NCBI GenBank assembly: GCA_963778805.1
Contig: CAVZVT010000005.1
Coordinates: 293,838 to 357,837, forward strand
Length of the DNA stretch: 64,000 bases
Direction: 5' to 3'
Origin: an uncultured Chloroflexia bacterium
GTDB lineage: Bacteria; Chloroflexota; Limnocylindria; Limnocylindrales; CSP1-4
Below, one piece after another: positions 5,413-57,738 of the stretch (position 1 is the stretch's first letter; every line of letters begins with the position of its first letter). The position numbers were made by a program, and so were the translations under genes. Under the pieces are notes generated by a model, which ran no database searches, had not been told where the DNA came from, and worked only from the letters and a program-made list of their open reading frames with translations.

Positions 5413-5479
5413 CGGGGGGTCGGGCCCGGGCCGGCCCGCGGCCGCGGCCGAGCCCGGGTCCTCGGCCCGGCCCGCCGCA

Positions 5480-5822
5480 CCGCCCGTTCGAGTCTCTGGC
5501 GCCCAACCGCCCGTTCGAGTCACCCCACGACCGAACCGACCGCCGATCGCTGACCCGCCGTCGGCCCCGGCCGAGCCCGCCCGAGCCCGCCCCGACCGCC
5601 CGTTCGGTCACCCCACGACTCGAACCGACGCGAGCCGGAACGTCCTCGATCGGCACCCCGGTCCGGCCTGGACCGCCGCCAGCCCGCCCAGCCGCCCGTT
5701 CGGTCACCCCACGACCGAACCGACCAGTCCCGGACGGCCCCGATCTGCCCGCACTCGCCCCGGCCGGACACGCCGCCAAGCCCCGCCGCCCGTTCGGTCA
5801 GCCTCGGCACGACCGAACCGAC
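5480..5822. repeat. array of 4.5 copies of a ~34-bp palindromic repeat (CCGCCCGTTCGGTCACCCCACGACCGAACCGAC; stem GTTCGGTC / GACCGAAC), period 89-96 bp
   Basis: Copies at 5480-5494 (partial), 5507-5540, 5596-5629, 5692-5724 and 5786-5822; copies are imperfect and the 55-62-bp inter-repeat segments are GC-rich and partly similar to each other. Confidence 0.7.
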
Positions 5823-5834
5823 GCGAACCGAGCC

Positions 5835-6618
5835 TCATGACTGGCGGCACCTCACAGCACGACGATGCCGGATCCACCCGGGTGGCGCCCTGCGCCAAGG
5901 TCGCGCAGGCATCACGCGAGCTTGGATCGGAAAGACATCGCTCGAGCAACGACGCGGCGGATCGGAGGGCGTCTGCGATTTCGACGTGTGTCTGAGACAA
6001 GCAGCAGGACGTGCTCCGCTCCCTCCGTCGCGGGCCTTGAGCGTGATCCGTCGGACTTGCGCCTGAAGGTCGATGAGTCTCGTCTCGGCCTCCACCGGAA
6101 GCCCGTCCATGATCGGCCTCGCTATCGCACCAGCCCGCCGATGCAGGCGTCCCATGCTCGTTGATCGCCGGGGATCCCGTAGTGGGACCTCCATCCGGAA
6201 GGTCAGCTCCGGCATGCGAGCCGCTGCCGGAGTCGATCCAGCAGGGCGATCTGCGCGGCGTCCCGGATCGGGTCCGGACCGGGATATGCTCGGACCCGAA
6301 CATCGAGGCCGACCGCTGAACCGAGCCTCGCGAGCTGGTCGACGCTCGCCGTCGCGAAGGCGGCCCGCTCGATCCGACCTGCCTGCGATCGGCGACAGCC
6401 CGGCCGTCGCCGCCAACGTGGACCTGGGAGCGACCAAGGATCATTCGAGCACCGCGGATCTCGTCCGCCGACTCGTAGCAGATCCGCCCGCGCGAGTCGC
6501 CGACCACGGTCGATCGGTCGCTCTCGGGTCGCCCATCCGTGCAGTGTCGCTCGACCTCACGTATCTGCGGCCAAACCGCGGCTTCGCGCCCAGCGGGACC
6601 CGAGGCCAGGTCGAGCAA
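5835..6618 (-). pseudogene. decayed or frameshifted ORF of unknown function on the minus strand
   Basis: Protein-like reading (high GC3) switches between three minus-strand frames (6618→~6400, ~6400→6230, 6437→5835); no recognisable domain; local GC is lower than surrounding genes. Confidence 0.3.
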
Positions 6619-6704
6619 GTGCGGCCAGGTCGGGTAAGGCGGCTCGGCGACATCGATCCCGACCGTACCCGCGGGCGGCCTCGGCCAGGGGCTAGCATAG
6701 GAAT

Positions 6705-7523: not shown

Positions 7524-7663
7524 GGGCCGGTCGCTAGGCCTTGAAGGCCAGTCGCGGGCCAGAGCGACCCCGAAGGCCGGTCGCTGGCCACAGGGCGACC
7601 CCGAAGGCCGGTCGCTGGCCACAGGGCGACCCCAGAAAGCCACTCGCTGGCCAGCCCGAATCC
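7524..7663. repeat. 31-bp tandem repeat block (4 units, 2 perfect: CCGAAGGCCGGTCGCTGGCCACAGGGCGACC) between convergent gene ends; each unit holds a short inverted repeat
   Basis: Perfect units at 7570-7600 and 7601-7631, degenerate units at 7539-7569 and 7632-7663, and a partial unit at 7524-7538. Confidence 0.7.
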
Positions 7664-9174: not shown

Positions 9175-9438
9175 TCAGGCGGACTTGCTGCCGACGTACA
9201 GGGCGAACAATCGAAGGGCGTAACCGAAGCCGGCGACCACGAACGAGAGGAAGATCGGCACGCCGATCGCGCTCGCGGAGATGGCCAACGCTTCGAACAG
9301 GTTGAACGCCGGGCGCTGGGCCAGATCGATCCACCAGATGACGCCCGCGATCAGCGAGTAGATCACGAAGATCCATCCGACGATCACGAAGAACGTCCCG
9401 ATGGACGCCAGTCGGCGAACATCGTTCGTGAGATCCAT
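9175..9438 (-). CDS. small membrane protein (88 aa, 2-3 TM helices)
   Basis: ATG preceded by an AGGAGG RBS (9446-9451, minus strand); the stop lies 1 nt before the lipoprotein start, suggesting an operon. Confidence 0.45.
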
Positions 9439-11179
9439 GTGGTTCCTCCTACGGGTCTGCACCCAGATCGAATCCTGGTGTCGTCGCTGACCCCGCCTCG
9501 GCGGTGCCCCGACATCGTACGTGATGGGCTAGCGTGCGCGCCCGAGCCCGAGCCGAGCCCGAGCCCGAGCTCCGCCGTCGAGAACGCCTCGAGCAGGAAC
9601 GGGGACGGGGTCGCCGGGTCGTAGAGGATCGTCAGCGATCGGCGCGCCCGGGTCCACGCGACGTAGGCCAGTCGGCGCTCCTCTTCGTAGGCTCGCGCGG
9701 GGTCTGCGGCGCCCTCCACGGCCTTGGCGCTCGGGAACCTCGCCGATTCCATCCCGAGGATGATCACGTGGTCGAATTCGAGGCCCTTGGTCGCGTGGGC
9801 GGTCGACAGGGTCAGCGGCGCATCGTCACGTCGAAGCTCCGCGAGTCGCGCTCGAGCCGCCACAACGGCCGCGGTGAACGTGGCGAGGTCGGGGTAGGGA
9901 GGTGCCCACGCAAGCAGGGCCGCCGCGGCAGCGGCTTCTGCCGGATCCGTGGCGTCGCCGCGCAAGCGCCCGAGCGTGACGAGCAACGGCTCCCCGGCGG
10001 CGGCGAGCGCGGCCAGCTCGGCGGCCCGTGCCAGCAGGCCATCCAGATGCGGATCCTCCAGCGGCAGCTCGATCCTGGCGGCACGAAAGGGCAGCCCCTC
10101 GGCCAACGCCACGACCACGGCCGGGATCAGTTCACGGTTCGTCCTGGCCAGGACGGCCCGGGTGGAGTCGTCGGTCGGCCAGGTCCGCATCGCGCGCTCG
10201 AGCCGGACCGGATCGTCGGCCGCATCCGGCGCCAGGGTGAGCGAGCCGGGCGCCTCATCGCGCGCCCGGATCCGCTTCGCGAAGCGTTCCCCGTTGTGCT
10301 CGACCAGTCGGACCGCGCGTTCGACGACCGCCCGCGGACATCGGTAGTTGACCTCCAGGTCGATCCGGCGGAGACCCGGCAATGACGCATCGAGACGCAG
10401 GACCCGTCGGACGTCGGCCAGCCGCCAGCCATAGATCGACTGGTCGTCGTCACCGACCAGCAGGATCCGGTTCGCCGGTGCCGCGAGCAGCAGCGCCAAC
10501 CGAAGTTGCGCGCGATCGACGTCCTGGACTTCGTCCACCAGCAGATGCGCGCACCGATCGCGCCATCGAGCGAGCAGATCCGGCCGGTCCTGGAGCAACC
10601 GCGATCGCGCGAAGGATGAGGTCATCGAAGTCGACGCCACCCGCCTCCTCGACGGCCGCCTGATAGGCCACGAACATCCGCGCGATCGGACCCGGCCTCC
10701 GGATCGGCGGCGACCTGTGCCGCGGTCACACCCAGCTCGACCTTCAGGCGGGAGATCGCCCCGTCGAACTCGAGGCGGGCGGCGTCATCGGCGTCGGGCC
10801 GGATCCGGCGAAGGATGGCGTCCCGGTCCACGAGATCCACGGCGTCGCCCGCGTCGCGCAGGATCTCGAGCCCGAGCGCGTGGAAGGTCCGGACCCGCGC
10901 GGCGCCGGCTTCGATGCCGAGCGGCGCAAGAGCCGCGTCCAGCCGTTCCGCGAGCTCCACGGCCGCCCGTCGATTGAACGTGATCGCCGCGATCGAGTCG
11001 GCCGCCACGCCGCCCGCGCCGCCCGCCACCAGCCACGCGATCCGGGCGACGAGGGTCGTGGTCTTGCCGCTCCCCGCCGGCGCCACGACCAGCACCGGCC
11101 CCGGCTCAGCAGTCGCCGCCGCACGCTGATCCGGCGCAAGGCGCGCGAGCCGCTCGACGACCGACGGGTGAAGGTCCAC
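9384..11179 (-). CDS. UvrD/Rep-family (SF1) DNA helicase, frameshifted copy
   Basis: Walker A VVAPAGSGKTTTL, UvrD motifs (DFDDL, LLVDEVQD, VGDDDQSIYGWR, YRCPRAV, TAHATKGLEFDHVII, YVAWTRAR) spread over at least 3 frames (frameshifts near 10620-10680); the 3' end overlaps the small membrane protein gene so the true stop is uncertain; it contains a (GAGCCC)n tract at 9541-9570. Confidence 0.6.
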
Positions 11180-11203
11180 CGACGCAGCATGCCGACCGCC
11201 ACG

Positions 11204-11270
11204 TACCTGCGGATCACCGCCTACCTGCCGATCACCAAATACCTGCCGATCACCCCGACCGCACTAGACT
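11204..11270. promoter_or_regulatory. three exact-period 18-bp direct repeats (TACCTGC[C/G]GATCACC) followed by a TAGACT -10-like hexamer, in the divergent helicase/uvrC promoter region
   Basis: Repeats at 11204-11218, 11222-11236 and 11240-11254; TAGACT at 11265-11270, 8 nt before the uvrC ATG (near-leaderless). Confidence 0.5.
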
Positions 11271-17515: not shown

Positions 17516-18768
17516 CCCGATCGACCGCCCGTCCGCCGCGCGCCTCGGATCCGTACGGCGTCGGCCCGGTTCGTGGGTACGTCGCGCCGGTCCTGGCCAT
17601 CGTCGGCCTGCTCGTCATCGCGTTCTTCACGATCAGCCTGCTCAACGGCGACGTGCCGTTCGTCGGCGGCCCCAAGGCGTCGAGCGGACCCGGCGGCGAC
17701 AACGGCGGCGGGCTCATCGATTCGGGAGCCACGCCCGCGCCATCGAACGTCGTGATCGTCGAACCCGATGCCGCGTTCAAGGGTTCGATCGTCTACGCGA
17801 AGGCCGGGAACATCTGGATCCAGTCGGGCAAGGACGTCCATCAGTTGACCGCGAGCGGCGGCGACTCGATGCCGTCCTGGTCGCCCGACGGCCAGTACGT
17901 CTACTACATCCGGACCAAGGAAGACCAGAAGGGGTTCTGGCCGACCCGTGGCGGACCGACCCACTACCTCCTCGAGATCCCGGACCTCATGCGGGTCAAG
18001 GCCGACGGCAGCGCCGATCCGGAGCGCCTCGCCACCGGCAAGATCAAGAAGGGTCGCTACACGTGGTCGTACTGGATGCGCCAACCGGTCATGTCGCCTG
18101 ACGACAAGACGATCGCGCTCATCACCGATGCTCCCAACCCCGACGACAGCAACGTCGTGCTCCAGTTCTTTGATCCAGCGACGGGCAAGATCAAGCCGGC
18201 TGGCGTCGGCGCCACGGGGTTGCTCGGTCATCAGGACCCGGAGTGGCGTCCGGATGGCAAGTACCTGCTGTACGTCAAGAACGGTCGCGACGGCGCCAAC
18301 GGCAAGCCGATCATCGCGCGCCTCGATCCGGCCACCGGGAAGACGAAGGCGCTGACGTCATCCGGGTACGTCGGGCCGTCCTACTCACCCGACGGCAGGT
18401 ACATCGCCGCCACGCGGACCTCGAACCTCGGGACCGACGTGGTGATCCTCGACGCGTCGACCGGGCAGGAGCTGATGCGGATCACGAACGACGGCTCGTC
18501 GTTCTCGCCCTCCTGGTCGCCGCTCGGTGATGGCATCGCGTACCTGCACCTGGACGGCCAGACGGTCGACCTCCGACTCGCCCAGCTCGATGGAGCGGCG
18601 CCGGACTGGACGGTCAAGGACACGACCGCCCTGACCGAGGTCTCCGGTCTCGACGCCAACTCCCGACCCGACTGGTTCATCCCGGCTTCGGACCTGCCGA
18701 CGCCCACCCCTGCGCCGACGCCCGAACCGACACCGTCGGCGGCACCGAGCGCCAGCACCGCTCCCTGA
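17512..18768 (+). CDS. membrane-anchored TolB-like beta-propeller (PD40 repeat) protein with a C-terminal Pro/Thr tail
   Basis: An N-terminal TM helix and repeated WSPDG / YSPDG PD40 motifs; the ATG overlaps the recJ stop. Confidence 0.6.
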   Translation: MTRSTARPPRASDPYGVGPVRGYVAPVLAIVGLLVIAFFTISLLNGDVPFVGGPKASSGPGGDNGGGLIDSGATPAPSNVVIVEPDAAFKGSIVYAKAGNIWIQSGKDVHQLTASGGDSMPSWSPDGQYVYYIRTKEDQKGFWPTRGGPTHYLLEIPDLMRVKADGSADPERLATGKIKKGRYTWSYWMRQPVMSPDDKTIALITDAPNPDDSNVVLQFFDPATGKIKPAGVGATGLLGHQDPEWRPDGKYLLYVKNGRDGANGKPIIARLDPATGKTKALTSSGYVGPSYSPDGRYIAATRTSNLGTDVVILDASTGQELMRITNDGSSFSPSWSPLGDGIAYLHLDGQTVDLRLAQLDGAAPDWTVKDTTALTEVSGLDANSRPDWFIPASDLPTPTPAPTPEPTPSAAPSASTAP

Positions 18769-18776
18769 GCGACCTG

Positions 18777-19651
18777 GTGGGCGACACCTACCTCGAACGG
18801 CTGGCGGCACGGTCCGCCGCGACCGGCACCGTCCTGTGCCTGGGCATCGACCCGGACCCGACGGCCCTGCCCGCGGGCTTCTCGGCGGACCTGCGCGGCG
18901 TCGAGCGGTTCGCGACGCTCCTGGTGGAGGCGGCCGCGCCCTTTGCCGCGGCCGTCAAACCGAACCTCGCGTTCTTCGAGGCGTACGGGTCGGCCGGGAT
19001 GGCCGCCCTTGAGCGGATCCGGGCGACCCTGCCGGGTGATGTGCCGCTGGTCGCGGATGCGAAGCGGGGCGATATCGGGTCGACCGCCGCCCGACAGGCC
19101 GTCGCGCTGTTCGATGTCCTGGGTGCGGACGCCGTGACCGTCAGCCCATATCTGGGCGCCGAGGCGATCGCCCCCCTCCTGGAGCGGGCGGACCGCTTCG
19201 CCTACGTCCTGTGCCGAACCTCGAACCCGGGGGCCGGCGAGTTGCAGGACCTGATCGTGCCTGCGGACCCGGTCCTTCCGGCGCCCGCCGAGGCGCTCCA
19301 TCTGCGCGTGGCCCGTCTCGCCGGCGGCTGGGGGCCGGGGGCACCGTCGGGTTGGTGGTCGGGGCGACGGCGCCGGCCGAGCTCGCCGGCATCCGGGCCG
19401 TGGCCCCGGGACTGGCGTTCCTGGTCCCCGGTGTCGGCGCGCAGGGTGGGGAAGCCGGGCCGGTGCTGGAGCACGGCCGCGCCACGGTCGCACCCAACGG
19501 GCAACGGGCGGGTGGGGGACTCCTGGTCAACGTCTCGCGGGGGATCTCCGGGGCCGCCGGAAGTGCCGCCGAGGCAGGTCCGCGCGACCCCTTCGAGCGG
19601 GTTGCCGCCGCTGCCGCCGACTGGGCCAAACGACTCCCTGTGCTACCCTAA
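18777..19651 (+). CDS. pyrF: orotidine-5'-phosphate decarboxylase, type 2 (one frameshift near 19330)
   Basis: N-terminal LCLGIDP…VKPNLAFFE…DAKRGDIGST and C-terminal …LVPGVGAQGG… lie in two frames. Confidence 0.8.
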
Positions 19652-19732
19652 CCGCCGCGCTGGACGGTCCGGATCCCCTCGTTCGCGAGCTCGGACCCGG
19701 CGACCCAGACATCGACAGGAGCACCGACGACG

Positions 19733-20108
19733 ATGCCGAACATCGGACCCCTCGAGCTCATCGTGATCCTGGTGATCGCCCTGCTGATCCTCGGCCCCGG
19801 CAAGCTGCCGGAGGTCGGTGCGTCGATCGGCAAGGGTCTCCGCGAATTCCGCAAGGCATCGTCCGATGTCCAGGACTCCATGCAGGTGAACGTCGACACG
19901 TCACCGTTGCCGGCGGCTCCCGTCGCCGCCCGCGGCCGTCGCTGCCGCCCCGGCTGTCGCTGCTGCTCCCGCGGCGGTCGTCGCTGCTGAGCCTGCGGCC
20001 GAGGTGGCTCCAGTCGCGGCCCCAGTGGCCGAAGCGGTCGTCCCGGTCGAAGCTCCGGCCCCCGCCGACGCGCCAGCCGCCAGCGAAACGACGACCGGCA
20101 CCAACTAA
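19733..20108 (+). CDS. tatA: twin-arginine translocase subunit TatA (frameshift near 19920)
   Basis: MPNIGPLELIVILVIALLILGPGKLPE…GKGLREFRKA, with the Ala/Pro/Val/Glu-rich tail readable in the +1 frame through to TAA 20106-20108. Confidence 0.75.
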
Positions 20109-20249
20109 CCCGTTGCGGCCCGACCCGACCTGATGGCCGACGCGGACGCCATCCTCGACCCGAGCGTGACCGGCGTTCCAACGACCCCGGACCGGCAACG
20201 CCCTGGATCGGCAACGCCACCGGCCGCCGCGCCTGGCGACCAGTCCGTG

Positions 20250-20946
20250 ATGTCCCTCGTGGATCATCTCGGCGAGCTCAGGTCCCGACTGTTCCGCTGC
20301 ATCATCGCGGTCGCCGTCGGATCCGTGATCGGATACTTCGTCGCGACGCCGATCCGGAACTTCCTCATCCAGCCGCTGAGCGTCGGCTGGCGCCCAGCCG
20401 CATGTCCAGGTGCTCGGCCTTGGCGACGCGTTCGTCATCCAGATCAAGATCGCGATCGTCGTGGGCATCATCCTGGCCATGCCAGTCCTGCTCTACCAGC
20501 TGTGGGCATTCATCGCCCCGGGTCTCACGCCAACGGAGCGCCGCACGGTCCGGCCGTGGATCCCGCTGGCGCTGCTGTTCTTCGCGATCGGCGTGACGGT
20601 CGCCTACGTCATCCTGCCGTTCGCCGTCGGGTTCCTCCTGAGCTACACGGACGACGTGCTCGTCCAGGGCATCGCCGCCGGGCCGTACTTCGACTTCGTG
20701 ACGACGATGTTCCTCGCGTTCGGTCTCGTGATGGAATTCCCGATCCTGATGGTCGGTCTGTCGAAGGTCGGGATCCTCACGTCCCAGCGACTCAAGGAGT
20801 CGCGTCGCATGGTCATCCTGGGTATCGCGGTCTTCGCCGCGGTCGTGACGCCCGGTGGCGACCCATTCAGCCCCATCGTCCTCGGCGGCACGATGTACAT
20901 CCTCTTCGAGCTGACGACGCTCTTCATCAAGCGATCCGGCCGTTGA
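20250..20946 (+). CDS. tatC: twin-arginine translocase subunit TatC (frameshift near 20390-20410)
   Basis: The N-terminal block (MSLVDHLGELRSRLF…) and the 5-TM C-terminal block lie in different frames. Confidence 0.8.
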
Positions 20947-20978
20947 TCGGTCGGGGCACCTCGGATGCGACCCCCGGG

Positions 20979-21852
20979 GTGGAGGCGGATCCGTCGGTCG
21001 TCATCGTCAGTGGGCTGAGCGGTGGCGGGAAGACCGCCGCGGCCAAGTTGTTCGAGGACCTCGGCTACACCGTGGTCGACAACCTGCCCGGCGAGCTGCT
21101 CCCGGACCTCGCGGAACTCGTGTCGTCGGACCGTCAACGCTTTGCGCGCGTCGCCATCGTGCTCGATATCCGAGCCCGGGAGCCCGGTCTCGCCCTCGCC
21201 GCGATGCGCGGCGCCCTGGAGGGTCGCGGGATCCGGCCGCGGGTCGTCTTCCTCGAGGCGAGCGACGACGTCCTGATCCGGCGGTTCAGCGAGACTTCGA
21301 CACCGCCATCCCCTCGATGACGACCAGGGCATCGCGAGCGCGATCGCCCAGGAACGCGAGATCCTCGAGCCGCTCCGCGCGGAAGCCGACATCGTCCTCG
21401 ATACCTCGGCGCTGTCGTTGCGCGAGCTCCGCGAGCGACTGTTCGGGCAGCTCGCGACGGCGGCCCGCTCGGACCAGCTCGCCATCCAGCTCATCAGTTT
21501 CGGGTTCAAGTACGGCCTGCCGCTCGAGTCGGACCTCGTGTTCGACGTGCGGTTCATGGAGAACCCGTTCTACATCGCGGACCTGCGGCCGCTCTCCGGG
21601 CTGACCGACGAGGTCAAGGCCTTCGTCCTCGACCAGCCGGTCGCGACCCAGTTCCTCGATTTCCTCTTCGGTTTCCTCGACTTCGCCATCCCGGCCTACA
21701 TCGCCGAGGGCAAGACCCGTCTGGCGATCGCGATCGGCTGCACGGGCGGGTATCACCGTTCGATCGTGGTGACCGAGGAACTGGCCGCCTGGCTCCGCGG
21801 TCGCGATGTCGGTCCCGTCGCGGTCTTCCATCGAGAGCTCGAACGACGATGA
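20979..21852 (+). CDS. rapZ: RNase adapter protein RapZ (frameshift near 21295)
   Basis: P-loop VIVSGLSGGGKT, the conserved core, and C-terminal GCTGGYHRS across two frames. Confidence 0.8.
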
Positions 21853-23190
21853 ACCTGCGGCGCTGGCTGTCGCCCGGTATCGGCGTCAAGCGCTGGCTCC
21901 TCGTGGTCTTCGTCGGGATGTTGCTGCTGGCCCTTGCCGTCGCGCACACGCTTCGACAGGTCAGCCAGGATCTCGACCCGGGTGGGTTCGCCGGATCGGT
22001 GATCGATCTGCTGACCCTCCAGTTCCTGCCGTACCCGCTTCGTGGCCTGATCGTCGGGGGTGTCGGGATCGGGCTCCTGGCCTACGGATCGTTCCGCGTC
22101 ATCCGGGCGTTCATGGACCCGTTCCGGACGACCGAGGGCGACCAGCCACTCGTCGAGCTGATCTACCAGAAGCGGTTCCTGGCGCGTGGTCCGCGGATCG
22201 TGACCATCGGTGGCGGGACCGGGCTGTCGGCCCTGCTGCGCGGTCTCAAGGAGCACACGAGCAATCTGACGGCGGTCGTCACGGTCGCCGACGACGGCGG
22301 GTCGTCGGGTGTGCTTCGGCACGAGCTCGGGATCCCGCCCGTCGGGGACATCCGCAACTGCATCGCGGCCCTCGCCGATGCCGAGCCGCTCATGAACCAG
22401 CTCCTCCAGTACCGGTTTCCGGATGCGGACGCCGATGCCGATGCCGATGCCGGCGTGCCCGGACTCGGTGGTCATGCCGTGGGCAATCTGCTGATCGCGG
22501 CGATGACCGCGGTGGAAGGCGGCGACTTCGAGGAGGGGGTCCGGCAGATGAACCGGATCCTCGCGGTCCGGGGTCAGGTGCTGCCGGTCTCGGCCACGCC
22601 ACTGACGCTGCACGCCCGGCTTCGAGACGGGACCGTGGTGGACGGACAGTCGCGGATCATGCGGACCAGCGGGATCGACCGCGTGTGGCTGACGCCGGCC
22701 GACGTCGAACCGTCGGAGGATGCGCTGGCCGCGATCGCCGAGGCCGACCTGATCGTCCTTGGCCCGGGGAGTCTCTTCACGAGCCTGCTCCCGAGTCTGC
22801 TCATCCCGGGGATCCGCGACGCGGTCATGACGTCCGGGCGCGACCCGGGCGTTCGTCTGCAACGTCGCGACCCAGGAAGGCGAGACCGACGCCATGGATC
22901 TCGCCGCCCATGTCGAGGCGCTCGTGGCCCACACGGCGCCGGGGATCGTGGACTTCGTCGTCGCGAACAACCAATTCGATGCGCGAGTCCCGGCTGACTG
23001 GACCGCGCAGCCCGTCCGTCTGCGTTGGCCGCCCGCGGTCAGCCCGACGCCGCGGCTGGTCCTGGACGCCGTCGTGGATGCGGACAATGCCCATCACCAT
23101 GACCCGGCCCGATTGGCCGAGACGCTGCTGCGCGCCTTCGAACGCGAGGGCGGGGTCCATCGACACCGCGCCGTCGCCCGGTCGGCTTGA
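21849..23190 (+). CDS. yvcK: gluconeogenesis factor / UPF0052 (YvcK, CofD-like); frameshift near 22840
   Basis: RIVTIGGGTGLS…VVTVADDGGSSG motif; the ATGA overlaps rapZ; the C-terminal ~100 aa lie in another frame. Confidence 0.8.
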
Positions 23191-23214
23191 GCCGCTTGGC
23201 ATGACCCGCTCCCG

Positions 23215-23980
23215 ATGACGCGCTCCGAGCGCGACCTCGTCACGGCGCTGCGAGCCGAGCTGGCCGCCATCGATCCCGCCCGGCCCTGCGACCGAGCCGC
23301 CGAGTCGATCGGGCTTGGGGCGGACGGCGTCGGATCCGGCGGTTCGCGATGGCCCGGTGGCTCGTCTCGCGGTCCGTCTCCGTCGCGGCGCCGACGATGC
23401 CGCGACACCCTTCGATTGGGCGACCGCGCCCGACCATTGCCGGACCGCGTGGCTCCGTGGGCGGTTCCTCGGCCGCGGCTCGCTCAGCCTCGCCGGTGGA
23501 CGGACCCACCTCGAATTCGTCGTCGCTCCCGATGAGGCACCGGTGCTCGCGGCCCACCTGGGCGACATCGAGCTGCCCGCCTCCTGGCGGCTGCGCCGAG
23601 GCCGTGGGGTCGTCACGTGGAAGAGCGGCGAGACCGTCGGGACGTTCCTGCGACGCATCGGGGCGGGTGGCGCGCTGCTCGAACTCGAGGCCCGGCAGGT
23701 GTCGCGGGCGCTTCGCGGCGACCTCAATCGAGTCCTCAACGCCGACTCCGCGAACCTGCAGCGGGCGGTGAGCGCCGCGGGTCGACAGCTCGACGCCATC
23801 GCGATCCTCGATGCGGATGGGCGACTGGCCAGGCAGCCCGAAGTCGTGCGTCTCGTGGTCGCGGCCCGGACGGAGACCCCGGAGGCGACGCTGTCCGAAC
23901 TGGCGGAACGACTGTCGATCCATCGCTCGCAGGTCCAGCGAGCCCTCGAGCGGGTCGAGCACCTCGCCACTCTGTCATGA
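23215..23980 (+). CDS. whiA: sporulation/cell-division regulator WhiA (at least 1 frameshift near 23300-23350)
   Basis: N-terminal MTRSERDLVTALRAELAAIDPARPCDRAAE, a LAGLIDADG-like middle, and a C-terminal HTH (…LSELAERLSIHRSQVQRALERVEHLA). Confidence 0.8.
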
Positions 23981-24779
23981 TTCCGGCGATGCGTGACGTG
24001 ATCGTGGCCGCGAACTGGAAGATGCACACGACGCCGGCCGATGCGGGCGAGCTCGCCCGAACCATCGCCAGCCGCACCCGGGAGTCCGGCGTGATCCGGG
24101 TCATCTGTCCGCCCTTCGTGTGCCTGGCCGCGGTGCGGGACGCGCTGTCGAGGCGACGATCCCGACGTGGGGGTCGGGGCCCAGAACGTCCATCACGAGC
24201 TTGCCGGTGCGTTCACGGGCGAGACGTCGGCCCCGATGCTCGCCGGTCTCGCGACGTGGGTCATCGTGGGTCACTCGGAGCGACGCCGCGACGCGGGCGA
24301 GACGGACGAGCTGATCGGTCGCAAGCTCGGCCGGGCCGTGGACGCGGGGCTGCGACCGATCCTGTGCGTCGGTGAACAGCTCGACGAACGCGAGGCCGGC
24401 GACCAGACCGCGGTCGTCGCGCGGCAGCTCACCACCTGCCTCGCCGGCCAGGAGCCCGCCGCGCTCGAGGCGGCGGGTCTGGTCATCGCCTACGAGCCGG
24501 TCTGGGCGATCGGCACGGGCAAGAACGCGAGTGGCCGCGACGCCGCCGACATGGCCGAAGCGATCCGGGCCGCGCTGCGCGGTCTGGGCTGGGGCGAGGC
24601 CGCGGACCGGACGCCGATCCTGTACGGGGGGAGCGTGACCTCCGCGAACATCGGGGAGTTCCTGAACGAGCCGTCCGATCGACGGGGCCCTCGTCGGTGG
24701 TGCCTCGCTCAAGCCCGATGAGATGGCCGGGATCGTGGCCCGTGCGGGTCTGACGGCGCGCGCTCGCGCCAGCGCGTGA
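23977..24779 (+). CDS. tpiA: triosephosphate isomerase (2 frameshifts)
   Basis: AANWKMH…, VIVGHSERR, AYEPVWAIGTG, GGSV across three frames. Confidence 0.8.
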
Positions 24780-26364
24780 CGACCGCCCGCCGCGACCGAC
24801 CTCGGCCCATCGTCCTCGTCGTCCTCGACGGGTTCGGCATCGGTCACGACCCGGCCGCGGATGCCATCGCCGCCGCGCCGATGCCGACCTGGCGATCCTT
24901 GCTGGCCCGCTGGCCGCATGCCACGCTCGGGGCGTCGGAAGGCGATGTCGGTCTGCCACCGGGTCAGATGGGCAACTCCGAGGTGGGCCACCTCAACCTC
25001 GGCGCCGGACGCCCGGTCCTCCAGGACCTGCCGCGGATCGATGCCGCCATCGCGGATGGTTCGTTCTTCGAGCGACCCGCGTTCCTGGCCGCGTGCGATC
25101 GGGTCGTGGCCACGGGCGGGACGCTCCATCTCGATCAGCCTCATCGGTCCGGGTGGCGTCCACGCCAACGACCGACACCTCGTCGCCCTCGCGGAGCTCG
25201 CCGCCCGTCGTGGCGTCGCCCGTGTGCGCGTCCACGCGCTGCTCGACGGTCGGGACACGGCGCCGCGGTCAGGGCGCGCCTACGTGGCGGACCTGGAGGC
25301 GCGACTCACGCCGGCCCACCCGGACGTCCGGATCGCGACGGTCGGCGGCCGATACTTCGGGATGGATCGCGACGGTCGCTGGGACCGGGTGGAACGCGCC
25401 TACGACGCGATCGTCCATGCCGAATCCGACAACCACTGGCCGGATGCCGACGACGCCGATCCGCAACGCCTACGCGAGCGACGAAGGCGACGAATTCGTG
25501 CGCCCGACCATCATCGAAACGGGCGCGTCGCCCATGGTCGACGGTGACGCCGTCATCCACGCCAACTTCCGTGCGGACCGGGCACGCCAGCTCACGCACG
25601 CCCTCGCCGATGGGCCGTCGTTCGCCGAGTTCGACCGGACCTCACCGTCCGGCCGTCCCGCGCCGACGGACCTGCTCGTCGTCACCATGACCGAGTACGA
25701 GGAAGGGCTCCCGGTGCAGGTGGCCTTCCCGCCCGAGATCGTCCGGTCGCTCGCCGATGCGGTCGCGGAAGCGGGTTGGCGTCAGTTCCACGTGGCGGAG
25801 ACCGAGAAGTACGCCCACGTGACCTACTTCTTCAACGGCGGTCGGGAGGCCCCACATCCCGGGGAGGACCGACGCCTCATCCCGAGCCAGAAGGTCGCGA
25901 CCTACGATCTCGCACCGGCGATGAGCGCCGACGGCGTCACGGACGCCCTGGTCGAGGCGATCGCGAGCGGCACGTACGACGTCATCGTCGCGAACTTCGC
26001 CAACCCGGACATGGTCGGGCACACCGGGGTCTGGGACGCGACGCTCGACGCCCTCGCGACCATCGATGCCTGTCTGACCCGTGTCGTGGCCGCGATCGAA
26101 GCCGTCGACGCCGACGAGCCCGGCGCCCCGGGAGCGCTCCTCGCGATCACCGCCGATCACGGCAACGCGGACCACCTGCGTGACGCCGCGGGCGACCCGG
26201 TCACGGCCCACTCACTCAACCCGGTGCCGTTCGTCCTCGTGGGTCGCGCGGCGCTGGGTCTCGAGCTCCGCGATGGGGTGCTCGCCGATGTCGCACCGAC
26301 GTTGCTCGAACTCGCGGACCTGCCGCCGTGGGAAGGGATGACCGGCCGAAGCCTCATCCTGTGA
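24776..26364 (+). CDS. gpmI: 2,3-bisphosphoglycerate-independent phosphoglycerate mutase (at least 2 frameshifts)
   Basis: VVLDGFGIG…GNSEVGHLNLGAGR…ADHGNAD… across three frames. Confidence 0.8.
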
Positions 26365-26402
26365 TAGCATCCGTCGCCGTTGCCGCAAGAGGTCGTCGAC
26401 CC

Positions 26403-28438: not shown

Positions 28439-28525
28439 GCCGAGGTGGCGGAATAGGCAGACGCGCTGGTTTCAGGTACCAGTGGCCGCAAGGTCGTGTG
28501 GGTTCAAGTCCCTCCCTCGGTACCA
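28439..28525 (+). tRNA. tRNA-Leu (anticodon CAG)
   Basis: Cloverleaf with acceptor GCCGAGG/CCTCGGT, anticodon loop TTCAGGT, a long variable arm and an encoded CCA. Confidence 0.85.
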
Positions 28526-28557
28526 CTCTCCCTCCGGACCCGACAAAGGCGACACCT

Positions 28558-28642
28558 GCCCAGGTGGCGGAATTGGTATACGCGTACGTTTGAGGGGCGT
28601 ATGAGGCAACTCATCCGGGTTCAAGTCCCGGCCTGGGCACCA
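28558..28642 (+). tRNA. tRNA-Leu (anticodon GAG)
   Basis: Acceptor GCCCAGG/CCTGGGC, anticodon loop TTGAGGG, a long variable arm and an encoded CCA. Confidence 0.8.
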
Positions 28643-28695
28643 ATCCATCGATCGATCTGACGACCGTCCGACAGGGCGGTCGTCATACTGTCCGT

Positions 28696-28772
<77 letters not shown>

Positions 28773-28780
28773 CCCATCGC

Positions 28781-30073
28781 GTGCGCGGAGGGACACGAGT
28801 GACCCACGAAGCCGATCTCGAGCGCGCATCGCGCTTCGTCATCCGCGACGTCGCGATCCTCGATGGGACCGGTCGGGATCCGGTCGGTCGATCGGACGTG
28901 GAAGTCGGTCCCGACGGCATCCGCAAGATCGCGCGCAGCGGGTCGATCCGGACACGGGCTCGCTCGATCGACGGGTCTGGCTGCACGCTGATGCCCGGGC
29001 TCACGGACGCCCATGTCCACCTCGCCGTGCTCGGGCCACATGGCGACTTCGACGACGAGGCACCGATCGCCCACGTGCTCAACGTGGCCAGGATGATCGA
29101 CGGCGTCCTCGATGAAGGGTTCACGACCGTCCGGGACGCGGGCGGGCTGGAGCCGACGTGGGCGAAGCTCGTGGCGAGCGGCACGATCCGGGGTCCGCGC
29201 ATCCTCCCATCCGGGTCCGTGCTGTCGCAGACGGGTGGCCACGGTGATGTGCGCGCGCAGCACGAGGCGGTCCACCGACATTCGGCCATCCCGGGCCTCA
29301 TCGCCCGGTCCGAGGTCGTGGACGGTCCCGACGAGGTCCGGCGCGCCGCGCGCGAGCAACTCCGCCGAGGGGCGACGCAGATCAAGGTCCTCGCATCGGG
29401 TGGCGTCGTCTCCCCGACGGACCCATTCGACAGCATCCAGTTCAGTCCGGCCGAGCTGGAGGCCGCCGTCGAGGTGGCCGCGAACTGGAATACCTACGTG
29501 ATGGCGCATTGCCACACGTCGCCGGCGATCCGGGTCGCGATCGAGGCCGGAGTGCGGTCCATCGAGCACGGGTCCCTGCTGGACCGCGAGACAGCCCGCG
29601 AGATGCAGGCTCGTGGCGTGTTCCTGGTGCCGACCCTGCAAGCCATCAGCTTCATCAGCAGGTATCCGGAACGGTTCTCCCTGTCCGCCGCGAAGATCGC
29701 GCGCGTGGCCGAGGTCGCGACCCAGGTCGCCGACAGCCTTCGGATCGCCGACGAGGCCGGGATCGAGATCGGGTCCGGATCGGACGTCGTCGGGCCCTGG
29801 CAGGGTCGCCGTGGCGAGGAACTGGTCCTCAAGGCGAAGATCCTCGGCGCGCACAAGGCGATCGTGGCTGCCACGCGAACGAACGCTCGGCTCTTCGGCC
29901 TCGAGGACCGGATCGGGACCGTGGAGGTGGGCAAGGTCGCCGACCTCATCCTGGTCGCCGGCGAGCCACTCGACCGGATCGAACTGTTGGCAGAACCGAC
30001 GTCGATCCCGTGGGTCATGCACGACGGCATCGTCGTGAAGGACGCCGACGCTCGAACGGCGTCCATCGACTGA
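28781..30073 (+). CDS. metal-dependent amidohydrolase family protein
   Basis: Conserved GLTDAHVHL and …VMAHCHT…IEHG… His residues typical of the amidohydrolase superfamily; the start may instead be GTG 28799. Confidence 0.75.
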   Translation: MRGGTRVTHEADLERASRFVIRDVAILDGTGRDPVGRSDVEVGPDGIRKIARSGSIRTRARSIDGSGCTLMPGLTDAHVHLAVLGPHGDFDDEAPIAHVLNVARMIDGVLDEGFTTVRDAGGLEPTWAKLVASGTIRGPRILPSGSVLSQTGGHGDVRAQHEAVHRHSAIPGLIARSEVVDGPDEVRRAAREQLRRGATQIKVLASGGVVSPTDPFDSIQFSPAELEAAVEVAANWNTYVMAHCHTSPAIRVAIEAGVRSIEHGSLLDRETAREMQARGVFLVPTLQAISFISRYPERFSLSAAKIARVAEVATQVADSLRIADEAGIEIGSGSDVVGPWQGRRGEELVLKAKILGAHKAIVAATRTNARLFGLEDRIGTVEVGKVADLILVAGEPLDRIELLAEPTSIPWVMHDGIVVKDADARTASID

Positions 30074-30532: not shown

Positions 30533-31099
30533 GTGCTGCCGCTGATCATCATCATCGCGATCGTCGTCGTCCTCGTGGTCGTCGTGATCGGGATCTACAA
30601 CGGTCTGGTCCAGCGCCGCCTGCGGGTCGACGAGGCGTTCGCCCAGATCGAGGTCCAGCTCAAGCGTCGTCACGACCTGATCCCGAACCTCGTGAACGCG
30701 GTCAAGGGCTACATGGGCTTCGAGCAGAAGGTCCTGACCGACGTCACCAACGCTCGCGCATCGGCGGTGGCCGCCGGAGCCCAGGGGCCGGCCCAGCAGG
30801 CAGCCGCGGAGAACGCCCTGACCGGGACGCTGCGCTCGCTGTTCGCCGTCGTGGAGAACTACCCGGAGCTGAAGGCCAGCGTCAACGTGCTGGAGCTCCA
30901 GGAACAGCTGACGACGACCGAGAACCAGATCTCGTTCTCGCGCCAGCACTACAACGCGACGGTCCTCGACTACAACACCTCGATCGCCACGTTCCCGAAC
31001 GTGATCATCGCCGGGCCGTTCGGCTTCAGCAAGCGTGAGTTCTTCGACGCCGAGCCCGAAGCCGCCAACGTCCCCAACGTCGATCTCAGCCTGAGCTGA
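30533..31099 (+). CDS. lemA: LemA family protein
   Basis: N-terminal TM helix, then LVQRRLRVDEAFAQIEVQLKRRHDLIPNLV…NYPELKAS; GGAGGAGGGG RBS. Confidence 0.8.
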   Translation: MLPLIIIIAIVVVLVVVVIGIYNGLVQRRLRVDEAFAQIEVQLKRRHDLIPNLVNAVKGYMGFEQKVLTDVTNARASAVAAGAQGPAQQAAAENALTGTLRSLFAVVENYPELKASVNVLELQEQLTTTENQISFSRQHYNATVLDYNTSIATFPNVIIAGPFGFSKREFFDAEPEAANVPNVDLSLS

Positions 31100-31121
31100 C
31101 CGGCGGTCCTCAGGAGGGGCC

Positions 31122-32105
31122 TTGGCCGCCGAAACGTTTTACGGCCAGATCGCCGCCAATAAGCGGAATTCGTTCCTGATGGCGTTGCTCGTCGTCGCCC
31201 TGCTGGCGGCGCTGGGCTTCTCGATCGGGTACGTCATCTTCGGGACGCCGGCGGGCGGTCTCGCTGTGACGCTGTTCGCGATCGCGCTCGGCGGTCTCTC
31301 GGGCGTCTTCACCTACTTCCAGGGTGACAAGCTCGTCCTGGCGGTCAGCGGTGCCCGCGCGGTGGACGAGACGAGCGCCCCGCAGTTGCTCAACGTGGTG
31401 CGCGAGATGGCCGTGGCCGCCAACGTGCCCATGCCGGCGGTCTACATCATCGATGACACCGCGCCCAATGCCTTTGCCACCGGTCGCGACCCGGCCCACG
31501 CATCGGTCGCCATCACGTCTGGCCTCCTCCAGAAGCTGGATCGGGAGGAGCTCCAGGGCGTCATCGGTCACGAGCTTTCGCACGTGCGCAACCTCGACAT
31601 CCGGTTCTCGCTCGTGGTCGGGGTCATGGTCGGGGCCATCGCGATCCTGGCCGACTTCTTCCTCCGGTTCACGTTCTGGGGCGGCGCCAGCGGGAGGTCA
31701 CGCGACCGTGACAGCAGCGGTGGGAACGGAGCCCAGGCGATCGTGATGGTCATCGCGATCACGCTGGCGATCCTTGCGCCGCTCATCAGCCGGTTCATCC
31801 AGCTCGCGGTCAGCCGACAACGCGAGTACCTCGCCGATGCCTCGTCCGTGGAGCTGACGCGGAACCCGTACGGGCTCGAGCGAGCGCTTGCCAAGATCGG
31901 CGGCGACAAGGAGGTGCTCGAGGTCGCGAACCGGGGCACCCAGCACATGTACTTCACGAACCCGATCAAGAAGTTCGAAGCCCGCTCGTCCAACCTGATG
32001 TCGACGCATCCGCCGATCCTCGATCGGATCAATCGCCTGCGTGAACTGACCGGCGACCCGCCGCTGGCAGCCCCCGAGGCCGCCAGTCTGACCGGCCTGG
32101 AGTAG
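31122..32105 (+). CDS. htpX: HtpX-like M48 family zinc metalloprotease
   Basis: 4 TM helices and the HEXXH motif (GHELSHVRN); TTG start preceded by a CAGGAGGGG RBS. Confidence 0.8.
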   Translation: MAAETFYGQIAANKRNSFLMALLVVALLAALGFSIGYVIFGTPAGGLAVTLFAIALGGLSGVFTYFQGDKLVLAVSGARAVDETSAPQLLNVVREMAVAANVPMPAVYIIDDTAPNAFATGRDPAHASVAITSGLLQKLDREELQGVIGHELSHVRNLDIRFSLVVGVMVGAIAILADFFLRFTFWGGASGRSRDRDSSGGNGAQAIVMVIAITLAILAPLISRFIQLAVSRQREYLADASSVELTRNPYGLERALAKIGGDKEVLEVANRGTQHMYFTNPIKKFEARSSNLMSTHPPILDRINRLRELTGDPPLAAPEAASLTGLE

Positions 32106-32207: not shown

Positions 32208-32283
32208 GCCGAGATAGCTCAGTTGGTAGAGCACGCGACTGAAAATCGCGGTGTCGCCAGTTCGAATCTGGCTCTCGGCACCA
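32208..32283 (+). tRNA. tRNA-Phe (anticodon GAA)
   Basis: Acceptor GCCGAGA/TCTCGGC, anticodon loop CTGAAAA, and CCA. Confidence 0.85.
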
Positions 32284-32309
32284 TCACTTCGGTGATCGGG
32301 CACACACGG

Positions 32310-32385
32310 GCGGAAGTGGCTCAGTTGGTAGAGCATCACCTTGCCAAGGTGAGGGTCGCGGGTTCGAGTCCCGTCTTCCGCTCCA
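32310..32385 (+). tRNA. tRNA-Gly (anticodon GCC)
   Basis: Acceptor GCGGAAG/CTTCCGC, anticodon stem TCACC/GGTGA with loop TTGCCAA, and CCA. Confidence 0.85.
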
Positions 32386-32405
32386 TTCCCTTTCCTATGG
32401 ACCGC

Positions 32406-32479
32406 TGCCCCTTCGTCTAGTGGTAGGACAGCGGACTTTGAATCCGTGAACCGAGGTTCGAACCCTCGAGGGGCAGCCA
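32406..32479 (+). tRNA. tRNA-Gln (anticodon TTG)
   Basis: Acceptor TGCCCCT/AGGGGCA, anticodon loop CTTTGAA, and CCA. Confidence 0.75.
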
Positions 32480-32487
32480 ACAACATC

Positions 32488-32564
32488 GGCGACGTGGTGA
32501 AGTGGTTCAACACGGAGGTCTGCAAAACCTCTATTCACCGGTTCGAATCCGGTCGTCGCCTCCA
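32488..32564 (+). tRNA. tRNA-Cys (anticodon GCA)
   Basis: Acceptor GGCGACG/CGTCGCC, anticodon loop CTGCAAA, and CCA. Confidence 0.75.
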
Positions 32565-33605: not shown

Positions 33606-33691
33606 GCCGGAGTGGCGGAACGGCAGACGCAGCGGACTTAAACTCCGCGGCCCGCAAGGGCGTCCGAGTTCGAATCTCGGCTCCGGCACCA
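33606..33691 (+). tRNA. tRNA-Leu (anticodon TAA)
   Basis: Acceptor GCCGGAG/CTCCGGC, anticodon stem GCGGA/TCCGC with loop CTTAAAC, a long variable arm and CCA. Confidence 0.85.
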
Positions 33692-38418: not shown

Positions 38419-39481
38419 GTGGATCTGGTCGTCCTCGCGCTCGCGTTCGTCGTGATCCTCATCGGCGCGGAACTGTTCACCAACAGCATCGAGTGGTTCG
38501 GCCGCAAGCTCGAGCTCGCGGAGGGGGTGGTCGGGTCCGTCCTGGCCGCCGTCGGCACGGCGTTGCCCGAGACCATGATCCCGCTCATCGCGATCCTGTT
38601 CGGGACGAGCGCCGCGGCCGACGAGGTCGGGGTCGGGGCCATCCTGGGGGCGCCGTTCATGCTGGCGACCCTCGCGATGTTCGTCACGGGGATCGCGGTC
38701 CTGCACTCCGCCCGCCGACGTCCGACGGGTGACGTGATGCTCGTCGACACGCACGTGCTGGCCCACGACATGCGCTACTTCGCGATCGCCTACGCCATCG
38801 CGATCGGTGCGGCGTTCCTCCCGCTGGAACCCGTCTGGCTGAAGTGGATCGTGGCGCTCGTCCTCCTCGGGATCTACGCGTGGTACGTGAAGGGCCACTT
38901 CGAGGCCGACCCGGACGTCGATGCCAGCGATCTCTCGCCGTTGCGCTTCCACCGGTTCGATCGGGGAGCGCACCGGGCCGATCCGGTCGTGCCGCGGCTG
39001 CGGATCGTCAACATCCAGGTGCTCGCCGCGCTGGCCCTGATCATCCTGGGTGCCGTCCTGTTCGTGGAGGCCGTCGACCACATCGCGAACGTCCTCGGGG
39101 TCGACGAGTTGCTGCTGGCCCTGGTCATCGCCCCGATCGCGACGGAGCTGCCCGAGAAGGCCAACTCGGTCGATCTGGGTCCGGGCGAAGAAGGACACGC
39201 TCGCCATGGGCAACATCACCGGGGCCATGGTCTTCCAGTCGACGATCCCGACGGTCGTGGCGCTGCTCTTCGCCTCGCACGCGTGGGTGGTGACCGAAGG
39301 GACCTACCTGGCCTTCGCGTCGGCCGGGATCGCCTTCCTCTCGTCGGCGGTGATCTTCATCCCGATGGCGAGGTCCGGTCGTCTGCGCGGCAAGGGGCTC
39401 CTCGTCGGTGGCCTCTTCTATCTCCTCTACGTCGCGCTCGTGATCGCCGTCATCACCGGGGCCTTCGGCGGGGCCGCGTAA
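38419..39481 (+). CDS. CaCA-family Na+/Ca2+ exchanger (YrbG-like); frameshift near 39170
   Basis: Two alpha-repeat regions (GTALPE… and ATELPEKANS…) in two frames. Confidence 0.7.
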
Positions 39482-40589: not shown

Positions 40590-42444
40590 TCAGGAGAGCG
40601 GCGGCGCTTCCAGACTTGGGGTGTTGCCGCCGATCGTGACGATGACGTCCGTTCGGATGGCCGGGTCGGTCACGAGTTCCACCTTCGTCTTGAAGGTCTT
40701 CTCGAGGAACGCGATCGTCGCGTCGAGACGGGCTTCCGCGCCGTTGTAGACCACGATCTTCGTGGCTGGCGGGATGGCGCCATCGGGCTTCTGTCGCGGT
40801 GACGAGGCCGCGAGACCCTTGTACTCGAGGTAGGCGGCGAGGGCCGGTCCGCGGCTCCGGTCGGCGAGCGGGTTGAGCACCCAGACCGAGGCACCCTCAT
40901 CGGCGAGCGACTCCGCCTGGGCCTCGTCGAGCGGGTTGCGCTTGAACGCCTGCTTGACCGCGCTTCGGATCCGGCTGACATTCGGGAACATCTTGTAGAT
41001 CGGCGCCCCGGGGGCCGTTTCGCTGCCGTACAACGGTGGCTGGAAGACGTACGAGCTGATGTTCGCGGTATCGATCTGGGAGGCGAGACCCAGGAGTTCG
41101 TCGAGCTGGTCGACCGGGATATCGGTCTTGATGGATTTCTTGAGCGCCTTCACGAGATCGGGCAGCACGGGGATCAGCTTCTGCGGGTCGGCCTGCTCGC
41201 GCATCGAGAGCAGCAGGCGCTGCTGCCGCGCGGCCCGGTCGAAGTCGTTGGTCGTGTGGCGGGATCGGGCGTAGCGGAGGGCTTCGGTGCCGTCCATGTG
41301 CTGGAGACCGCTCGCCACGTAGAGGCGGCGATCCTGGCCATCCGAGGCTGGGTAGTTGTCGTCGACGATCGGGACCTGGACGTTGACCGTCACGCCGCCG
41401 ATCTCGTTGAGGACCTGCTTGAACCCCTCGAAGTTGACCTCGACGAAGTAGTTGATGTCGAGGCCGTAGAGCTCGCCCAGCGTCGCCTTGAGCGCGTTGT
41501 AGCCGCGCGTCTTCTGCGTGCCCGACCACAGGTCCGATCGATTGCGGTTCTCGGAGAACAGCGAGTTGATCTTCTGGCCGTAGGTCGATCCCCAGAAGCT
41601 TCGCGCCGGGCCGGGCGGCAGCGGCACGTTGGTCATGTCGCGCGGGAGGCTGAACATCGCGACCTGCTTGGTGACCGGGTCGATCGAGACCGTGATCAGC
41701 GTGTCGGTGTTGTGACCCACCGTGCTCGACATCGGCGCCGATGAGCAGGATGTTCAGTCGTCCCTTGCCGTCCCACGGCGCGATCGAGACGAGCGGCAGG
41801 GGCGTGCCGATCGGGGTCGCTTCCGCCGTCGGTGCGGCGGTCGGTGTCAGCGATCCGGTCCCGTCATCGGTTTCGGTGGGTCCGGGCGTCGTCGGCGCCG
41901 CTGAGGCATCCCCGGTGTCGCCCGTGTCGCTGTCATCCGCGCAGACACTGGTCTGGTCGTCGCCGACGAAGATGCAGCCGCTCGTGAGGGCATCGATCGC
42001 GAGGACGTCGTAGCGGGCGACGACCACATGCGCGCCGAGCATGACGACGATGATCGCGAGGAGTCCGGCGATCGAGAGCGGGCGACGCGAGATCCTGGCC
42101 GGACCGAGATGGCCGGGGCCACCCGCGTCGTGCGCATTGAGGAATTCGGCGACCCGATACGCGTCGACGATCGCGACGATCCGGTAGATGACGACGATCA
42201 GGTTCACGACGAAGACCGACTGGAGGAAGAAGACGTCGAAGACGAGTCCGATCATCGACGCGCGGTCCATCCGCAGCAGCAGACCGGAGCCGAGGGCGAT
42301 GAACAGGATCGGCGCCGCCGCGAACGCGAGCGCCCGCATGGGCGCGCCGGCATACAGCTGACCCAGTCCCGGGAAGATCAGGGAGAGGAAGGCGGCCCCG
42401 AATGGCGAGCGGTGCCGCGGTCGCGGCTCCTGCGTTGGCTGCAT
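40590..42444 (-). CDS. LCP (LytR-Cps2A-Psr) family cell-envelope phosphotransferase with a multi-TM N-terminus (frameshift near 41735)
   Basis: LCP core (…SLPRDM…NYFVEVNFEGFKQVLNEIGGVTVNV…RYARSRH…) in one frame and the N-terminal TM plus Thr/Pro linker in another. Confidence 0.75.
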
Positions 42445-42527
42445 CGCGGGTAGGATACTCGGACCGCCCGATTCGACGCGCCCGTCGCCCTCCGAGCGTC
42501 GTCGACCACCTCCTCACCCGGAGTCGA

Positions 42528-45500: not shown

Positions 45501-45876
45501 GCGGCGGACGAAGTCGAGATCCAGGCCTCGCCCCGACCCGGCACGGCCGTCGCCGATCGCGACGGGCTGGTCATGGTCATCGACACCGAGCTGACGCCGG
45601 CCCTTCGTACCGAAGGCGACGCCCGCGAGCTCCAGCGCGCCATCCAGGACCTTCGCAAGGAGGTCGGCCTGGAACTCGACGACCGCATCGAACTCTGGCT
45701 CGGTGGCATCGCGGCCGGGATCGAAGCCCATCTCGGCCCGGTGCTCGACGAGACGCTGGCCACGCGCATGGATGGAGCGGTCCCGGCTGGGCACCGGATC
45801 GGCCTCGATCGAGCTCGATGGCGGTCCAGTGCGCATCGCCATCCGCCGAGACGAGCGGGGGAGTGGCCCGACGTGA
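42528..45876 (+). CDS. ileS: isoleucine--tRNA ligase (frameshift near 45780 fuses the tail to the lspA frame)
   Basis: HMGH (PITANNPMGVHH), KMSKS-like KSWGN, and a zinc-binding C-terminus; the native stop TGA 45874-45876 is reached in the alternate frame. Confidence 0.9.
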
Positions 45877-55493: not shown

Positions 55494-55627
55494 GCGAGGT
55501 CCTCAGGTAGGTGATCAGGGGGACTCGAGCCGGGACCGGCCCGAACGGAAGCGGTAGGATACCACAAGGCCTCCGACGCTCTGCTCGGACACCGCCCGAC
55601 CCGCCCTGCGAGGAGGACGACGCCCGC

Positions 55628-57737: not shown

Positions 57738-57738
57738 C

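Follow-up and report, generated by a model that had tools for sequence, protein, structure and literature searches.

The stretch of DNA analyzed here, which is 64,000 nucleotides long and will be referred to as the window, corresponds to positions 293,838 to 357,837 of contig CAVZVT010000005.1 in the assembly GCA_963778805.1 of an uncultured Chloroflexia bacterium (order Limnocylindrales in the GTDB lineage), and the present study deals with the single-base frameshifts by which many of its conserved genes are interrupted. The guanine and cytosine (GC) content of the window amounts to about 70%, and that of the third codon positions (GC3) to approximately 0.85-0.9, which reflects a very strong third-position bias. 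Nearly all the genes located between 11 and 32 kb are carried by the plus strand. A search performed with the N-terminal part of yvcK yielded 80 syntenic loci, all 80 of which belong to metagenome-assembled genomes (MAGs) of Chloroflexota / Candidatus Limnocylindria, the best loci showing 83-84% protein identity to the window. The order of the genes uvrC, secD, secF, recJ, TolB-like, pyrF, tatA, tatC, rapZ, yvcK, whiA, tpiA, gpmI, and secG is kept among these relatives, and the conserved gene order extends from uvrC to beyond 32 kb. Both in the window (23215-26364) and in all the related loci, whiA is directly followed by tpiA and gpmI, and gap and pgk are not found between them; in Actinomycetota and Bacillota, these two genes usually sit at the whiA-tpiA position.

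Distribution of the frameshifts in the window

The reference queries used to locate the frameshifts were the stop-to-stop open reading frames (ORFs) of nine relatives, the contig names of which (k141_, NODE_) point to short-read assemblers. These ORFs were compared by tblastn with the window and with all the loci, and a junction was recorded when a single query ORF was matched by two successive frames and at least three query loci agreed. To assign events of the cluster to a single base, nucleotide alignments comprising 67-79 sequences were built gene by gene. Elsewhere in the window, candidates were nominated by a Viterbi segmentation of GC3, tested with Pfam profiles, and located by means of the junction peptides; the segmentation was too noisy to be used alone for counting frameshifts and served only for nomination.

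A total number of 19 frameshifts were identified in the window, ten of them at 19.3-25.5 kb and nine elsewhere (Table 1). The net direction is +1 in 18 of the 19 cases, the sole net -1 event being that of pyrF, and no in-frame stop codons or larger deletions were found to interrupt any of the frameshifted genes of the window. In the cluster at 19.3-25.5 kb, the continuations of all eight genes in other frames are visible in a three-frame translation. The tblastn comparisons yielded nine junctions in the window, all lying within 19.34-25.44 kb (at 19342, ~20399, 21296, ~22840, ~23319, 24151, 24677, 25123, and ~25410), whereas the intervals 11.7-19.3 kb and 25.5-32 kb yielded no junctions. A preliminary description of this DNA had proposed frame changes in pyrF, tatA, tatC, rapZ, yvcK, whiA, tpiA (two), and gpmI (at least two), and translation and tblastn agree with it on this point. 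The dense cluster which it reported was also recovered, but the number of about 11 events in 7.7 kb has to be corrected to ten events within 6.1 kb. The clustering, which had been called striking, is borne out by the scan statistic: with 10 of the 19 events in 6.1 kb, p = 2e-4 when the whole 64 kb are considered and 5e-4 when only the 57 kb of coding sequence are taken into account. The density is about 1.6 events per kb in the cluster versus about 0.16 per kb elsewhere.

For six events of the cluster, namely five single-base insertions and one deletion, the exact base could be assigned (19339, 21296, 22834, 24151, 24675, and 25134), and each of these six indels is private to the window. The remaining events are net +1, and the conserved peptides on either side of them adjoin directly. 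The junction in pyrF is spanned by one ORF in eight of the nine short-read query loci, and the Ala/Pro-rich tail of TatA ('...ASETTTGTN*'), which is read in the +1 frame, matches the tails of the relatives (for instance '...ASEPTTGTN*' in locus L005).

Table 1. Genes of the window affected by frameshifts, with the position and net effect of each event.
Gene	Coordinates	Strand	Frameshift	Remarks
pyrF	18777-19648	+	net -1; base missing at 19339	CCGGG-GGC, CCGGNGGC in relatives
tatA	19733-20108	+	net +1 at ~19931	TatA_B_E core in frame
tatC	20133-20946	+	net +1, bracketed to 20383-20410	variable loop
rapZ	20994-21852	+	extra T at 21296	deletion gives back the invariant ETRHRHPL
yvcK	21849-23190	+	extra C at 22834	
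whiA	23215-23980	+	net +1, bracketed to 23316-23345	variable loop
tpiA	23989-24779	+	extra A or G at 24151; extra C at 24675	deleting C at 24675 gives back EPSIDGALVGG
gpmI	24803-26364	+	extra A at 25134; second +1 at ~25437	deleting A at 25134 gives back LHLVSLIGPGGVH; second event in variable loop
UvrD-like helicase	9387-11263	-	two net +1, at 10690 and 10602	UvrD-helicase profile split, 2-99 and 197-268
Na/Ca exchanger	38419-39478	+	net +1 at 39172	between ELPEKANSV and IWVRAKKDT
LCP (LytR_cpsA_psr)	40593-42513	-	net +1 at 41715	between ILLIGADVEHGG and HNTDTLITV; junction placed by eye
ileS	42303-46457	+	net +1 at ~45800	near the C-terminus
A/D-rich ORF	50648-51098	+	probable net +1 at ~50960	based on composition only
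fmt	51588-52605	+	net +1 at 51840	Formyl_trans_N profile 48-177 confined to second fragment
asp23 + DAK2/FakA-like	55511-57737	+	net +1 at 57413	FakA-like_C profile split over two frames, 1-109 and 111-216
recG	57724-59962	+	net +1 at ~58884	DEAD profile split, 18-73 and 82-164

Outside the cluster, the frameshifts previously proposed in the helicase, Na/Ca exchanger, LCP, ileS, fmt, DAK2, and recG genes were all found, as was, with a lesser degree of certainty, that of the A/D-rich ORF, which is probable. This was not the case with recJ, in which a frameshift had likewise been claimed: the DHH, DHHA1, and RecJ_OB domains are all present in a single ORF, which the relatives match in a single high-scoring segment pair (HSP). 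The DUF4440 gene mentioned in the same context was not located. The genes uvrA, uvrC, secD, priA, ilvE, rlmN, and plsX each consist of one uninterrupted ORF, as had been stated, and uvrC and secD are moreover each covered by a single HSP in the comparisons with the relatives. In the helicase gene, the junction peptides place the middle piece in the third frame.

Two of these loci deserve a more detailed description. The ileS and lspA genes form one ORF of 1,385 amino acids, in which the DUF5915 profile stops at position 170 of 195 and which also contains the Peptidase_A8 domain. The shift occurs about 18 codons ahead of the ileS stop codon, and the two genes run on because this +1 event skips the stop codon and leads into the frame of lspA: the ileS-lspA ORF is an artificial fusion, which a gene caller would report as one protein. 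At the asp23-DAK2 locus, where the preliminary description had also listed asp23 as frameshifted, the Asp23 domain is present in full. The reading frame continues from it into DAK2 with no stop codon in between (55511-56160), and the TGA overlapping the ATG of DAK2 (TGATG) lies in another frame. The missing stop may be due either to a further +1 error in the tail of asp23 or to a genuine fusion.

Comparison of Nanopore and short-read relatives

Of the 80 syntenic loci, 43 (the MFD loci) come from the 'MFD...bin' series, which is the Microflora Danica long-read catalogue. This catalogue is based on Nanopore reads only, which were assembled with Flye and subjected to one round of Medaka, and it was inspected by its authors for Nanopore-associated errors (PMC12313526). 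The MFD loci showed 174 raw junctions in 893 kb, ranging from 0 to 17 per 21-kb locus, versus 19 in 498 kb in the other loci, which are mostly short-read ones. After two recurrent gene-boundary artefacts had been taken out of the tally, 148 junctions remained in the 43 MFD loci versus about ten in the other loci. The ratio between net +1 and net -1 junctions was 127/21 in the former (86% of +1) and 2/8 in the latter. At the nucleotide level, private one-base insertions and deletions numbered 81 and 10, respectively, in 325 kb of MFD loci, and 4 and 3 in 223 kb of the others. The rates are approximately ten-fold lower in the non-MFD loci, where no +1 bias is present. The spectrum of the window, with 18 of 19 events in the +1 direction, is like that of the Nanopore set. 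The lesions of the MFD loci occur at positions which are not homologous to those of the window. The density of the window's cluster does not exceed what is seen in sister assemblies: in locus L002 (CAVPHR010000006.1, 7098-14325), about 7.3 kb of these genes carry 25 single-base insertions.

A comparison with sister genomes, which had been suggested in the preliminary description, was possible only with relatives that are at most 85% identical to the window and do not belong to the same species: every cluster junction detected by tblastn is bridged by one continuous ORF in three to eight of the nine short-read relatives. Several of the Nanopore loci show breaks of their own. Loci L002, L031, L044, L026, and L033 correspond to Nanopore GTDB species representatives with even denser single-base insertions, the tail of TatA is broken in L004, and the homologue of the window's 31095-32105 region is broken in both L001 and L004.

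A protein of 306 amino acids (P0001, present in NCBI and ENA) corresponds to the C-terminal fragment of the window's gpmI; it is a singleton encoded on a metagenome contig of 996,134 bp, and its full-length relatives consist of about 528 amino acids. The list of gpmI matches also includes truncated products of 331-464 amino acids located on long ENA contigs. Since a metagenome contig of 996,134 bp is a size to be expected only from long reads, the use of such reads is implied. The assembly is probably a Nanopore-only one obtained from a soil or sediment metagenome, and the window may itself belong to the Microflora Danica catalogue. Indel errors in a long-read or metagenome assembly had been taken as the default explanation in the preliminary description, and this choice is supported by the comparison between the MFD loci and the short-read relatives. 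Based on these comparisons, it seems very probable that the frameshifts stem from errors remaining in the consensus of a long-read assembly and that the organism itself has intact genes. These errors would consist overwhelmingly of spurious single-base insertions, and the quality of the consensus would be lower at 19.3-25.5 kb than elsewhere on the contig.

We also considered the possibility that pyrF, tatAC, rapZ, yvcK, whiA, tpiA, gpmI, ileS, recG, and other genes may really be broken as the result of a recent process of pseudogenisation, since the lesions do stand in the deposited sequence and their local clustering is not random. Bacterial pseudogenes show a deletion bias, however, and present a mixture of nonsense, frameshift, and deletion lesions; the almost exclusively +1 direction recorded here is the opposite of this bias, and neither nonsense codons nor larger deletions accompany it. 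The frames downstream of the events are open and have kept their full codon bias: the GC3 of the downstream fragments is 0.82-0.91 and their identity to the relatives 70-85%, values like those of the upstream parts, and the three segments of gpmI are 82, 78, and 83% identical to those of L004. In addition, single-copy essential functions are struck (ileS, tpiA, gpmI, and fmt), as is tatC, and the same signature occurs at unrelated positions in 43 Nanopore assemblies, whereas it is essentially absent from the short-read ones. Pseudogenisation is therefore very unlikely, and the reductive decay which the preliminary description had retained as a less likely alternative is contradicted by the direction of the events, the lack of nonsense codons, and the conservation of the downstream frames.

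Sequence context and clustering of the inserted bases

The sequence context was analyzed in 86 insertions, including those of the MFD loci and those of the window. Only 27 of the 86 insertions extend a run, so that homopolymer slippage was rejected as the main cause, and the homopolymer or GC-run contexts to which the preliminary description had drawn attention account for part of the insertions but not for the majority, which lie outside homopolymers. The inserted bases mirror the base composition (C 38, G 26, A 13, and T 9). A methylation-type motif was also considered, as TCGA seemed to be enriched at the sites of the window, but the enrichment of tetramers is weak over the 86 insertions (GCGC was observed 18 times versus 6.4 expected, and TCGA 14 times versus 7); no strong motif stood out, and this candidate was not retained. 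Some contexts were found to recur at independent sites: GT[C]CG occurs four times, GAC[T]TCGAC is shared by position 21296 of the window and position 13470 of L036, and CTCG[A]TC by position 25134 of the window and position 14449 of L044. These recurrent contexts, the enrichment of which is weak, hint at the existence of context-specific errors made by the basecaller or the polisher.

The near-uniform +1 direction would suit a single compensating mechanism, such as programmed +1 ribosomal frameshifting or transcriptional slippage, by which the genes might be kept functional. The six indels of the cluster for which the exact base is known are each private among the 67-79 sequences aligned, however, and no shared slippery motif, slippery heptamer, or long homopolymer was detected at the sites, the contexts of which are mixed (ACT[T]CGA, GT[C]CGA, and TCG[A]TCA). 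Neither programmed frameshifting at conserved sites nor slippage of the poly(A) type is compatible with the fact that the pinned sites are private and that no site has a slippery or homopolymeric context. The pattern is also confined to the assemblies of one platform, and recoding is extremely unlikely.

As regards the clustering itself, neither the base composition nor the genes involved were found to be responsible for it. The GC content of the 2-kb bins of the cluster (0.68-0.72) is like that of clean regions, and the priA region, with a GC content of 0.74, carries no event. In the 41 MFD loci which are full-length, 58 junctions were recorded in the region homologous to the cluster versus 48 in the upstream flank, which speaks against any intrinsic error-proneness of the pyrF-gpmI region; the cluster therefore belongs to the contig carrying the window and not to the genes. 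Private substitutions at invariant columns amount to 15 out of 2,318 in the cluster versus 6 out of 3,047 in the flanks (odds ratio 3.3, p = 0.013), whereas in the MFD loci taken together, the two regions do not differ in this way (1.7 versus 1.9 private substitutions per 1,000). The most economical reading of these data is that the cluster is a stretch of 6-8 kb with a lower consensus quality. The local cause might be a dip in coverage, an admixture of reads of related strains living in the same sample, or a segment which the polisher left close to its draft state.

The second of these causes, namely the collapse of reads from closely related strains or the formation of a chimeric segment, rather than low coverage, is compatible with the co-occurrence of related Limnocylindria populations, several bins of one sample being represented among the loci, and with the surplus of private substitutions which the cluster shows. 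On the other hand, the flanking genes are equally conserved and yet clean, and the sequence alone does not separate this case from that of a low-coverage or unpolished segment. Mixed strains are a possible explanation of the cluster, though one that is less likely than not. That the frameshifts, or at least those of the cluster, might result from a real recent burst of +1 insertions in a housekeeping segment of a free-living Limnocylindria population, left for example by an error-prone repair tract and either recoded or carried by a dying lineage, is extremely unlikely.

Several points weigh against the idea that the frameshifts are consensus errors. The status of each site as an error rests on comparisons with the relatives rather than on reads, and no genome of the same species was found with which the window could be compared: the best non-self match of gpmI among 5.8 billion proteins is 85% identical, and the GTDB species representatives scanned do not include the window's genome. 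The surplus of substitutions which the cluster shows is only modest, and some of the changes, such as the replacement of a TCN serine codon by the serine codon AGC (21018-21019), are clearly real. Lastly, the textbook Nanopore error is the homopolymer error, and the mostly non-homopolymer errors observed here depart from this pattern, although the MFD loci behave alike.

Other features, consequences, and comparison with known systems

A region of about 1.3 kb downstream of uvrA (5413-6700) shows neither codon periodicity nor any credible ORF, which is unusual in a gene-dense genome. Within it, an element recurring every 96 nucleotides or so is present in four copies (5497-5832), and nothing was found in the region by searching Rfam. 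At 7539-7653, a unit of about 30 nucleotides (CCCCGAAGGCCGGTCGCTGGCCA plus a spacer) occurs four times in tandem; this array is flanked by the DUF6941 gene and by the 3' end of a META-like lipoprotein gene carried by the minus strand. Eight transfer RNA (tRNA) genes are arranged in three groups (28439-28769, 32208-32561, and 33606-33688), with scores well above the threshold and no obvious indel damage. An amidohydrolase gene (28706-30073) adjoins the first of these groups and is unmatched in L001, L004, and L050, the three relatives displayed.

From the biological point of view, the genes affected should be treated as intact. Truncated or fused gene calls of this kind are already present in the public protein collections, as in the case of the gpmI fragment P0001, and the ileS-lspA ORF is another example. 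Estimates of completeness and metabolic reconstructions based on such MAGs will under-call essential pathways. The combination of insertion-biased, mostly non-homopolymer single-base errors with a patchy distribution provides a warning signature which can be recognized without reads in high-GC Nanopore-only MAGs.

The closest parallel is that of the Nanopore-only MAGs of the Microflora Danica catalogue (PMC12313526), in which the same single-base indels split conserved genes; those related to the window agree with it in both rate and +1 bias, and the rate is likewise uneven between and along contigs. This paper and an earlier one on R10.4 data (PMC9262707) stress the role of long homopolymers, low GC content, and low coverage, whereas the lineage to which the window belongs has a GC content of 70% and most of the insertions lie outside homopolymers. 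Many conserved genes are also frameshifted in pseudogene-rich host-restricted bacteria such as Mycobacterium leprae and recent symbionts, but the window differs from these genomes in its nearly insertion-only spectrum, its lack of nonsense mutations and larger deletions, its preserved codon bias, the essential nature of some of the genes struck, its free-living soil lineage, and its intact relatives. In Buchnera and Blochmannia, essential genes are likewise frameshifted and possibly still expressed thanks to poly(A) slippage, but this process requires long homopolymer tracts, none of which are present at the sites of the window.

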